Part shown: in pieces, positions 62,081-63,540 of the stretch
Position numbering within the stretch: position 1 is the first letter of the stretch
Layout: the number at the start of each line of letters is the position of its first letter
Source: Escherichia phage CCU7
Sequence record: PV806175.1
Strand: one strand, 5' to 3'
DNA: 64,000 nt
Notes under the pieces: model-generated
Database searches by the model: none
Told to the model about the DNA's origin: nothing
The model's input: the letters and a program-made list of their open reading frames with translations, nothing else
Made by a program: the position numbers and the translations under genes

Positions 62081-62554
62081 ATGATTATCAATGAAAACTC
62101 TTGGCACTTTAAAATTTATGCCGCGTTTAATAGTACATGGAATCGTCCGAAAACGTTGTGTGCTTATTTTTGGAAAACGTTTCTCCCGGTATTGTTTGTT
62201 TCGATTATTGGATTTGCGATTTTAGCAGCGGCCACAATCGTTGGCCATGAAATTTTAACTAAATTCTTTGTCTTTAGTAGTTTATGGTCATTGGTTCCGG
62301 CCTCAATTGGTGTAGGTGTTTTATTCATTGCATTATGTGTTGGTATTTCTATAGTTTTAGTATTAGGCATACCGTGGCTAATCGACTTATATAGAGAGCG
62401 GAAGTATTATAAAGAAATTGAGCTCATTGCGCAAAACCAAGAACGAATTAAAAATGGACTTGAGCCTATTGAACGTAAGAAATCATTAATAGGTGAATAC
62501 CTTAAAGCTCGTAAAGAAAAAGTCTGTCCTACTCTTGAATATAAGGCTAAATAA
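62081..62554 (+). CDS. membrane protein (multi-TM)
   Basis: Hydrophobic segments FLPVLFVSIIGFAILAAATIV and LVPASIGVGVLFIALCVGISIVLVLGI. Confidence 0.5.
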   Translation: MIINENSWHFKIYAAFNSTWNRPKTLCAYFWKTFLPVLFVSIIGFAILAAATIVGHEILTKFFVFSSLWSLVPASIGVGVLFIALCVGISIVLVLGIPWLIDLYRERKYYKEIELIAQNQERIKNGLEPIERKKSLIGEYLKARKEKVCPTLEYKAK

Positions 62555-63540
62555 TGAAAACGATTGTTAAGGCTTACTTTGGTAGCCACCTTTATGGGAC
62601 GTCTACTCCTGAATCTGACGTTGATTTTAAAGAAATTTATGTCCCTCATGCTCGTGATATTTTGACCGGTAACGTTAAAGAACATATGAGCAAGAACACG
62701 AATAACACATCTTCTAAGAACACAAAAGACGACGTAGACCATGAGTTGTATAGTCTCAAATATTTCTTTAAACTAGCTGCAGATGGTGAAACCGTCGCAT
62801 TAGATATGCTTCACACTCCACCGAGTCTAGTAGTTAAATCTGATTTGCCTGATGTATGGAAGTATATTCAAGATAACAGATCTCGTTTCTATACCACTAA
62901 CATGAAATCTTATTTAGGGTATGTCCGTAAGCAAGCTTCTAAATATGGCGTCAAGGGTTCTCGTCTGGCTGTTCTCCGACAAGCCCTTAAACGTTCTAAT
63001 GAATGGGGACAATACTTTGATAACGGTGCAGTAATTCGTTTATCACATATGAAGAATGTTCTGCCTATAGGTGAATTTGCTTCGTGGATTGAAACCGAAA
63101 ACGAGAAAACAGGTAAGCAAACATTCTATAATCTGTTAGACCGTAAATTCCAAGACACGTTAACCAATAAAGAGTTCAATGCCATCCTGGTTAAACTGGA
63201 AGAGAATTATGGTGAACGTGCTCGTAAGGCAGAAGCTAACGAAGGTATTGATTGGAAAGCATTGAGTCATGCATGCCGTGGTGGACTTCAGCTCTTAGAA
63301 ATTTACAAAACCGGCGACCTGGTTTACCCGCTTCAGGATGCTCCATTTATTCTCGATGTTAAGCTTGGTAAACATACGTTTAAAACCGTACAGGAATTCT
63401 TAGAAGATATCGTTGACCAAGTTGAACATGCCGCAGAACAAGCCGCTAAGAACGGTATGCAGCAAAAAGTAGATATGAGTTTCTGGGATGACTTCCTTGA
63501 GCAAGTCTACTTAGAAAACCACAATTCATACTATAAATGA
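62554..63540 (+). CDS. nucleotidyltransferase-fold protein (328 aa)
   Basis: N-terminal G-S-H-L-Y-G-T-S-T-P-E-S-D-V-D-F matches NTase-fold G-S ... D-x-D signature; ATGA coupling to upstream membrane protein. Confidence 0.55.
   Translation: MKTIVKAYFGSHLYGTSTPESDVDFKEIYVPHARDILTGNVKEHMSKNTNNTSSKNTKDDVDHELYSLKYFFKLAADGETVALDMLHTPPSLVVKSDLPDVWKYIQDNRSRFYTTNMKSYLGYVRKQASKYGVKGSRLAVLRQALKRSNEWGQYFDNGAVIRLSHMKNVLPIGEFASWIETENEKTGKQTFYNLLDRKFQDTLTNKEFNAILVKLEENYGERARKAEANEGIDWKALSHACRGGLQLLEIYKTGDLVYPLQDAPFILDVKLGKHTFKTVQEFLEDIVDQVEHAAEQAAKNGMQQKVDMSFWDDFLEQVYLENHNSYYK

Follow-up and report, generated by a model that had tools for sequence, protein, structure and literature searches.

RNA repair as a phage counter-defence has its founding case in T4, whose Pnk and Rnl1 counteract the anticodon nuclease PrrC. 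Nucleases of the RloC type remove a nucleotide and thereby defeat simple religation, and the phage answer to them has been a long-standing loose end. Here we analyze nrdC.11 of Escherichia phage CCU7 (sequence record PV806175.1), a gene whose product we assign to the RlaP family of nucleotidyltransferases (NTases) and consider a candidate for extending phage tRNA repair. The whole stretch of 64,000 nucleotides that was analyzed is referred to as the window, and positions are counted from its first letter.

Among the NTases that accompany RNA ligases in jumbo phages, RlaP is the most prevalent, and it has been predicted to restore nucleotides lost prior to ligation (Iyer et al. 2021). A preprint (Carruthers, Fatma and Huang 2025; PMC12776372) has assigned T4 NrdC.11 to RlaP cluster 5 and characterized two Pseudomonas RlaPs, PfRlaP and PaRlaP. 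These enzymes add one or two nucleoside monophosphates onto an RNA 3'-OH, with Mn2+ preferred and with DNA and protein not serving as substrates; they favour the 5' half of nicked tRNA over free strands, and they partly rescue the aminoacylation of a tRNA missing one anticodon-loop nucleotide. In total E. coli RNA they label rRNA, full-length tRNA and tRNA fragments using any nucleoside triphosphate (NTP), while E. coli proteins are not labelled (PMC12776372). The family has three strictly conserved aspartates, and in the PfRlaP crystal structure the last helix of the C-terminal helical domain packs onto the NTase domain to make a cleft. Hence, the identity and the likely role of nrdC.11 are already in the literature, and the present gene is a further instance rather than a discovery.

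Identity, family and fold of NrdC.11

A preliminary description of the window had reported a 328-aa open reading frame (ORF) with an NTase signature, and this ORF is indeed present at 62554-63540 (+), with the N-terminus MKTIVKAYFGSHLYGTSTPESDVDF. Over the 2.5 kb around it, the DNA shares 99.8% identity with Escherichia phage CAU_ECP01 and 95% with RB69; thus, the window represents an RB69-like Mosigvirus (T4-type, Straboviridae), and its strand runs in the direction of early transcription. In RB69, tk, rI.1 and rI are followed by small ORFs and mobD.1, then by RB69p104, annotated as a 'membrane protein', by nrdC.11, annotated as 'nucleotidyltransferase', by an ORF of 72 aa and by nrdC.10; the series tk - rI - mobD.1 - membrane - nrdC.11 - nrdC.10 is shared with the window. 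Judged by sequence and synteny, the ORF is the Mosigvirus orthologue of T4 NrdC.11, the two proteins being 78% identical over their full length. The gene and its key codons are as follows.

62554-63540, + strand: nrdC.11 coding sequence, 328 aa, assigned as an RlaP-family Pol-beta NTase (ORF, RB69 synteny, PF10127, PHROG 388, AlphaFold2 model)
62581-62586, + strand: codons of G10-S11, hG[GS] motif, where strand beta-1 ends (invariant; model strand E2-9, helix H11-14)
62617-62625, + strand: codons of D22-V-D24, predicted first and second catalytic carboxylates, where strand beta-2 begins (invariant; model strand E23-30)
62737-62739, + strand: codon of D62, probable third catalytic carboxylate, strand E61-67 (invariant; RlaP has three conserved aspartates)

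T4 nrdC.11 (tk.-11) belongs to the nrdC-tk early region, where it is listed as 'conserved hypothetical' and in RefSeq as 'nucleotidyltransferase'. It resembles the window gene in its position between mobD.1/mobD and nrdC.10, its strand and its early context. It differs in having the homing-endonuclease gene mobD directly upstream, whereas in the window, RB69, T2 and many others a gene of the family phrog_944 overlaps the start. The T4 region nrdC.11-mobD.3 is deletable. By tblastn, NrdC.11 was found in 1544 phage records, including T4, T2 and T6 (77-79% identity to the window protein) and T4-like phages of Klebsiella, Yersinia, Acinetobacter, Aeromonas and Vibrio. In a search of 1.84 billion cluster representatives, 748 clusters matched at E < 1e-30, nearly all of them full-length. 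The initial homologue search gave only proteins of at least 98% identity; diverse homologues were taken from a 50%-cluster library, and 93 of these, with 34-52% identity to the query, form the alignment used for conservation.

The Pol-beta signature named in the preliminary description is present and its residues are invariant, but the motif by itself carries little weight: of the 76 window ORFs, 6 contain the loose pattern G[GS]x9-13[DE]x[DE] and one the strict pattern hG[GS]x9-13[DE]h[DE]h, for which 0.74 would be expected from shuffled ORFs. The NTase finding rises above chance because homology and fold support it, and not because of the motif. NrdC.11 matches the Pfam family PF10127 (RlaP) over residues 6-139 with 48.6 bits (cut-off 23, E 1.1e-12), as do 92 of the 93 diverse homologues, and it matches PHROG 388 ('nucleotidyltransferase') at E 1.2e-125. 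In the other direction, jackhmmer seeded with a canonical short RlaP reached NrdC.11-like proteins at E 1e-40 to 1e-60. G10, S11, S21, D22, D24, D62, Y131, K235, R242 and G272 are invariant in the alignment, and D60 is at least 90% conserved. We are therefore highly confident that NrdC.11 is a member of the RlaP (PF10127) family.

The AlphaFold2 model, for which the 93-sequence alignment served as input, has a pLDDT of 94 and a pTM of 0.84. It begins with beta1 (2-9), followed by G-S, a helix and beta2 (23-30) carrying D22/D24, with D62 on a later strand (61-67); as modelled, this is the canonical Pol-beta NTase arrangement. The predicted layout consists of the NTase core (residues ~1-95), a helical region, a small beta-sheet insert (176-200) and a C-terminal helical domain with helices between 205 and 327, the last of them spanning 308-327. 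The C-terminal end of the short-RlaP hidden Markov model (HMM) aligns to residues 279-310. NrdC.11 shares with the RlaPs of P. fluorescens and P. aeruginosa the PF10127 match, an N-terminal NTase with a helical C-terminal domain and three invariant aspartates. It differs from them in belonging to cluster 5 instead of cluster 1a and in lying outside an rtcBA operon; it is also ~60-70 residues longer than short canonical RlaPs, with the beta-sheet insert as an addition and only its first ~140 residues aligning to the Pfam model.

The preliminary description had called for HMM and structure searches; besides the RlaP match, these returned NTases at the top of the Foldseek list. The top matches in the Protein Data Bank (PDB) are all of this kind, namely 3c18, ANT(4')/KNTase and Hailong HalB, with probability ~1 but E ~2e-3 and low TM scores. 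Weak E and TM values are to be expected when the query is multi-domain and has no close solved relative. PDB sequence searches with NrdC.11 and with its 93-sequence profile gave nothing meaningful, and NCBIfam and PADLOC scans gave only sub-threshold noise.

Two other readings of the enzyme were considered. Since aminoglycoside NTases, together with an NTase-like protein from structural genomics, are the best solved matches, NrdC.11 might nucleotidylylate a protein or a small molecule, such as a toxin (as MntA AMPylates HEPN) or a metabolite or antibiotic (as KNTase does); a sub-threshold MntA match also runs across the G-S...D motif. KNTase/ANT(4') and 3c18 do share with NrdC.11 the NTase core and a helical C-terminal domain, but at 8-10% identity, TM 0.25-0.37 and E ~2e-3, with no common sequence family, and KNTase/ANT(4')-type enzymes act on small molecules. 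The profile scores are far under their cut-offs (NTP_transf_2, 13.6 versus 21 bits; MntA, 13.3 versus 60 bits), RlaP labelled no E. coli proteins (PMC12776372), and no HEPN partner gene is adjacent. We consider this reading improbable.

The preliminary description had also raised nucleotide signalling. In the form considered here, NrdC.11 would make, mimic or deplete a second messenger in the manner of CD-NTases or HalB against host immune signalling, and the membrane protein might join. The fold is common to all Pol-beta NTases, and the core of HalB, an oligodeoxyadenylate synthase, matches NrdC.11 over ~150 residues with probability ~1. However, these HalB matches reach E 4.5e-3 at best, with TM 0.25-0.35, and do not surpass those to antibiotic NTases; at 13-16% identity the likeness is one of fold only, with no HalA-like partner. 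No SMODS, CD-NTase or Mab-21 match was found (Pfam, E < 0.1), nor any PADLOC match, and the significant Foldseek matches include no structure of the cGAS/OAS type. The direct family is instead RlaP, whose tested members act on RNA ends. The idea is hence unsupported, and we regard it as very improbable.

Several side observations concern the annotation of this family. 'Thioredoxin' is a widespread misannotation of NrdC.11 homologues in deposited phage genomes and UniRef names; the label apparently stems from the gene name nrdC.11, and thioredoxin similarity is absent from the protein. In Salmonella phage S16 (L007 3470-4447), NrdC.11 is annotated in two pieces, gp56.1 and gp56, and may be a disrupted or interrupted copy; two genes of unassigned role separate it from the membrane-protein gene. 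On a metagenomic phage contig (L012/L013 6974-7978), the gene after the NrdC.11-like gene is labelled AcrVA2-like by precomputed Pfam data, and a Pfam rescan of its product gave nothing at E < 0.01.

RNA-repair neighbours and the proposed role of NrdC.11

Bacterial and archaeal genomes contain at least 161 full-length NrdC.11-like genes (33-52% identity), many of them on megabase contigs. A census of the two nearest ORFs on each side of the NrdC.11-like gene in 37 bacterial/archaeal loci yielded 8 second RlaPs, 2 each of PNKP_ligase, RtcB, RtcA, AAA_33, Metallophos and HD, and 1 Hen1. RtcB/RtcA neighbours are also found with Pseudomonas RlaP. Furthermore, three loci have the gene orders RlaP-Pnk-Rnl1 (L157), Rnl1-RlaP (L192) and Pnk-like-RlaP (L224). 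Taken together, these data show that the 'RNA-ligase-associated' property is true of the subfamily, though not locally in T4-like phages. The L157 case (62-3803) deserves separate mention: on a 4-kb contig from a Bathyarchaeota bin, genes for an RlaP, for a Pnk similar to that of T4 (E 1e-51 to RB69 Pnk) and for a ligase of the Rnl1-like kind lie in a row. They make up a complete T4-style repair triad with the NTase, and the DNA may be viral despite its archaeal binning.

In 12 of 80 loci, a short canonical RlaP (~255-275 aa) directly follows the long NrdC.11-like gene as a tandem paralogue. Such long-short pairs were seen on the bacterial contigs L156, L171, L176, L185, L195, L198, L206, L212, L222, L225, L228 and L231; in phages, only the long form was found. 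NrdC.10, the product of the next large gene downstream of nrdC.11, was considered as a short RlaP partner and ruled out, as it gave no HMM match. It is modestly new that the NrdC.11 subfamily has an RNA-repair neighbourhood and that, in bacteria, it is paired with a short RlaP.

Phage genomes offer single cases of the same kind. On contig L076, Rnl1, a metallophosphoesterase, an AAA_33 (P-loop) kinase and RlaP form one 5-kb cluster; in locus L011, an AAA_33 kinase lies two genes downstream of the NrdC.11-like gene; locus L085 has Rnl1 and an Rnl2-like gene; and a CCA-adding enzyme is encoded 4-5 kb away in loci L012/L013, L068, L079 and L081. Potential partners also exist within the lineage of the present phage. 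RB69 carries pseT and rnlA, away from nrdC.11, and the window itself encodes an RNA ligase, which is possibly a downstream RNA-repair partner of NrdC.11.

7132-8139, + strand: rnlB, RNA ligase 2, 335 aa, between gene 24 and hoc, 54 kb from nrdC.11 (ORF; RB69 syntenic annotation)

Set beside the family membership, the Pol-beta core, the invariant catalytic set and the cellular RNA-repair neighbourhood described above, our preferred explanation, to which we give a probability of roughly 0.6, is that NrdC.11 is an RlaP that attaches one or two nucleotides onto RNA 3'-OH ends and thereby extends phage tRNA repair. By analogy with the two Pseudomonas RlaPs, the enzyme would take NTPs and a divalent metal, with Mn2+ preferred, and would add the nucleotides, untemplated, to the 3'-OH of broken RNA, preferably tRNA halves. 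This step would extend the end-healing by Pnk and the sealing by Rnl1/Rnl2, all of which are encoded in the phage lineage, to tRNAs from which a host anticodon nuclease such as RloC took a nucleotide, and a fraction of the religated tRNAs would become functional again. The gene itself is an early one, is dispensable in the laboratory and is translated from a stop/start overlap with the phrog_944 gene. For the specific role in tRNA repair, we put the chances at about even.

Several points weigh against this explanation. In this phage and in most T4-like phages, nrdC.11 is not beside pnk or RNA ligases. When 136 same-strand neighbours from 26 divergent IMG/VR phage loci were classified with Pfam, no RNA-repair family proved frequent; the only recurrent neighbours were NAD-salvage and DNA-replication genes, and the association with RNA repair in phages is therefore sporadic. 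The Pfam model covers only residues 6-139, and the C-terminal 190 residues, including the beta-sheet insert, are subfamily-specific. The activity would be carried over from Pseudomonas RlaPs of a different cluster, described in a preprint only. Finally, untemplated addition would restore the correct nucleotide only occasionally, as the authors of that preprint concede (PMC12776372).

The absence of pnk and rnl from the vicinity of nrdC.11 in T4-like phages, together with its place among the early host-takeover genes, would also suit a regulatory enzyme, in which case NrdC.11 would put short tails on the 3' ends of host or phage mRNAs, sRNAs or tRNAs, which would then be marked for decay or changed in function while the phage takes over its host. 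The loose specificity of the Pseudomonas RlaPs, which label rRNA, tRNA and fragments with any NTP (PMC12776372), fits this as well. Nevertheless, cellular genomes and some phage contigs link the subfamily with RtcB, RtcA, Pnkp, Hen1, Rnl1 and Pnk, and the preference of RlaP for the 5' half of nicked tRNA over free strands (PMC12776372) is at odds with a general tailing function. We consider regulatory tailing in place of repair unlikely, and the same holds for the marking of RNAs for decay or altered function.

The upstream membrane protein

The gene directly upstream of nrdC.11 and the sites around the borders of nrdC.11 are as follows.

62081-62554, + strand: 157-aa membrane protein, RB69p104, phrog_944 (hydrophobic stretches, PHROG match, RB69 annotation)
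62543-62546, + strand: AAGG within the membrane-protein gene, a Shine-Dalgarno-like element that precedes the ATG of nrdC.11 by 7 nt (sequence; function putative)
63542-63559, + strand: GC-rich hairpin with a UUCG loop, 2 nt past the nrdC.11 stop (minimum free energy -13.4 kcal/mol)
63589-63616 and 63870-63897, + strand: early-promoter-like sites after the hairpin (sequence)

The hairpin was examined as a terminator and rejected: a T-run is absent from the + strand, and its stability does not exceed that of shuffled sequences (z -1.15).

The upstream protein had been described as spanning the membrane several times, and it is hydrophobic at residues ~29-60 and 62-105, consistent with 2-3 membrane helices. 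It had further been said to be coupled to nrdC.11 through an ATGA junction. The overlap of the two genes is real, but its form in the window is different: the junction reads AAA-TAA-TG-AAA, that is, TAATG with one base shared. The ATGA form is found in RB69 (AAATGATGAAA), and T2 also has an ATGA variant.

Homologues of phrog_944 occur in 1013 phage records. They share the N-terminal motifs SWHxK / LCxYFWK and the C-terminal motif [YF][LI]KA[RK]KxKxCPxIE[FY], with H9, C27 and C149 near-invariant. In 43 of 78 IMG/VR loci, phrog_944 is encoded 0-2.6 kb upstream of the NrdC.11 relative on the same strand; 11 of these 43 have the stop/start overlap, and the others have 1-3 inserted genes, as in Salmonella phage S16. 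T4-type genomes with mobD are missing the phrog_944 gene, and NrdC.11 hence needs no phrog_944. The latter is thus a frequent, though not an obligatory, upstream neighbour of nrdC.11.

A survey of 56 IMG/VR loci seeded with phrog_944 placed RlaP downstream in ~24, while ~25 had no detected neighbour of the RlaP/Rnl1/Pnk type. Five of the 56 are Pakpunavirus-like with the order metallophosphoesterase - membrane - Rnl1 - AAA_33 kinase, which is also that of Pseudomonas phage YS35. In L140, Rnl1-Pnk lies 1.2 kb upstream of the phrog_944 gene; in L141, a Pnk-like kinase lies directly downstream of it; and in L076, it adjoins Rnl1. The instances in non-T4 phages are L009 (YS35) 923-3764; L132, L134, L139, L143 and L149; L076 991-6311; L140 1087-5444; and L141 5001-5906. 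We found no published description of phrog_944 in unrelated phages with Rnl1 or Pnk as its neighbour. The cases of phrog_944 with RlaP in T-even phages could be accounted for by conserved T4-like synteny alone. The occurrence of phrog_944 next to RNA-repair enzymes in several unrelated gene orders is, in our judgement, probably more than chance would give, and we treat it as a lead.

A bolder proposal would make phrog_944, which is translationally coupled to RlaP in T-even-like phages, a working part of phage RNA repair, perhaps as a tether to the membrane, a sensor or a regulator, and not an accidental neighbour; separately, it would make the domains DUF7277/DUF7275, found in the second gene treated below, a new phage family of MenT-like RNA NTases. 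We hold this to be speculative and rather unlikely, as are the particular functions suggested for phrog_944. If its first part were true, the window would hold a two-gene, membrane-anchored RNA-repair module.

A second nucleotidyltransferase-like gene, and implications

A looser version of the NTase motif had been noted in a second ORF of the window.

49889-50845, + strand: homologue of RB69ORF134c, 318 aa, DUF7277 (residues 2-101) and DUF7275 (120-305) (Pfam, RB69 synteny, AlphaFold2 model)

G6-S7 ... D25-W-D27-F are present as noted, and G6, S7, D25 and D27 are invariant among 51 homologues, but the spacing from S to D is 17 and hence outside the canonical 9-13. The RB69ORF134c block lies between e.2 and e.3 and has RB69-specific ORF names only, without 'similar to T4' notes. 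The 733 phage records with homologues extend to Otagovirus of Pseudomonas, Justusliebigvirus of Klebsiella and phages of Acinetobacter, Stenotrophomonas, Gordonia and Streptomyces. In a literature search, we found no paper mentioning DUF7277 or DUF7275. The C-terminal region is also strongly conserved in the 51 homologues: K125, H128, H194, D195, H198 and E248-R249-S250 are invariant, as is the block KVCTSITSGxFR (270-281) except for W279.

The AlphaFold2 model (pLDDT 80.6) has a beta-alpha-beta start with G6/S7/D25/D27 canonically placed, and the conserved Glu on the next hairpin is E69, after an evident misalignment of the window sequence was corrected by eye. D25, D27 and E69 are the probable catalytic residues. 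As modelled, the protein has a real NTase fold of the MenT/AbiEii/small-ANT type, with motif I and the third carboxylate in place, although family membership is not demonstrable: Pfam assigns only DUF7277 and DUF7275, and neither AbiEii/DUF1814 nor any PDB chain is matched by sequence, the PDB search with the profile giving nothing meaningful. Profile-profile comparison with NrdC.11 gave a probability of 0.8%, i.e., no detectable sequence kinship.

The fold raises the possibility that this protein is a phage MenT/AbiEii-like NTase that modifies tRNA or some other RNA at its 3' end, or a blocker of such a host toxin, in either case independent of NrdC.11. We hold this view tentatively and at less than even odds. 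MenT1, MenT3(TglT), MenT4 and AbiEii share no sequence profile with the ORF, and its G-S to D spacing of 17 is longer than theirs; Foldseek E values are > 0.02, and residues 75-87 of the model fall below a pLDDT of 50. Unlike MenT/AbiEii, the protein is encoded by lytic phages and carries an extra, highly conserved C-terminal region of ~170 residues (DUF7275), its most conserved part, which has no fold assignment. It has no adjacent antitoxin, and no conserved or antitoxin-like neighbour was found for the family, the neighbours differing in all five phage contexts compared.

Other small genes surround this ORF. Three tandem paralogous ORFs of 101, 90 and 65 aa lie at 48767-49561 (+) in the RB69ORF136c-139c region; all begin with MS[KR] and have the motif GW[IV]xSSxxC at the C-terminal end. 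Small membrane proteins encoded at 48277-48669, 50916-51221 and 51909-52400 (+), one of which is the e.2 homologue, flank it; in their C-terminal parts, a charged helix is followed by a weakly shared F[IV]xE[CI]R motif, and their likeness is marginal.

Two Pfam domains of previously unassigned function, DUF7277 and DUF7275, are now assignable to a MenT-like NTase fold, which is modestly new. The recurrence of a conserved small membrane protein beside phage RNA-repair genes is a lead for follow-up. NrdC.11, present in ~1500 sequenced T4-like phages, is the obvious candidate for the missing step in which a lost nucleotide is restored.

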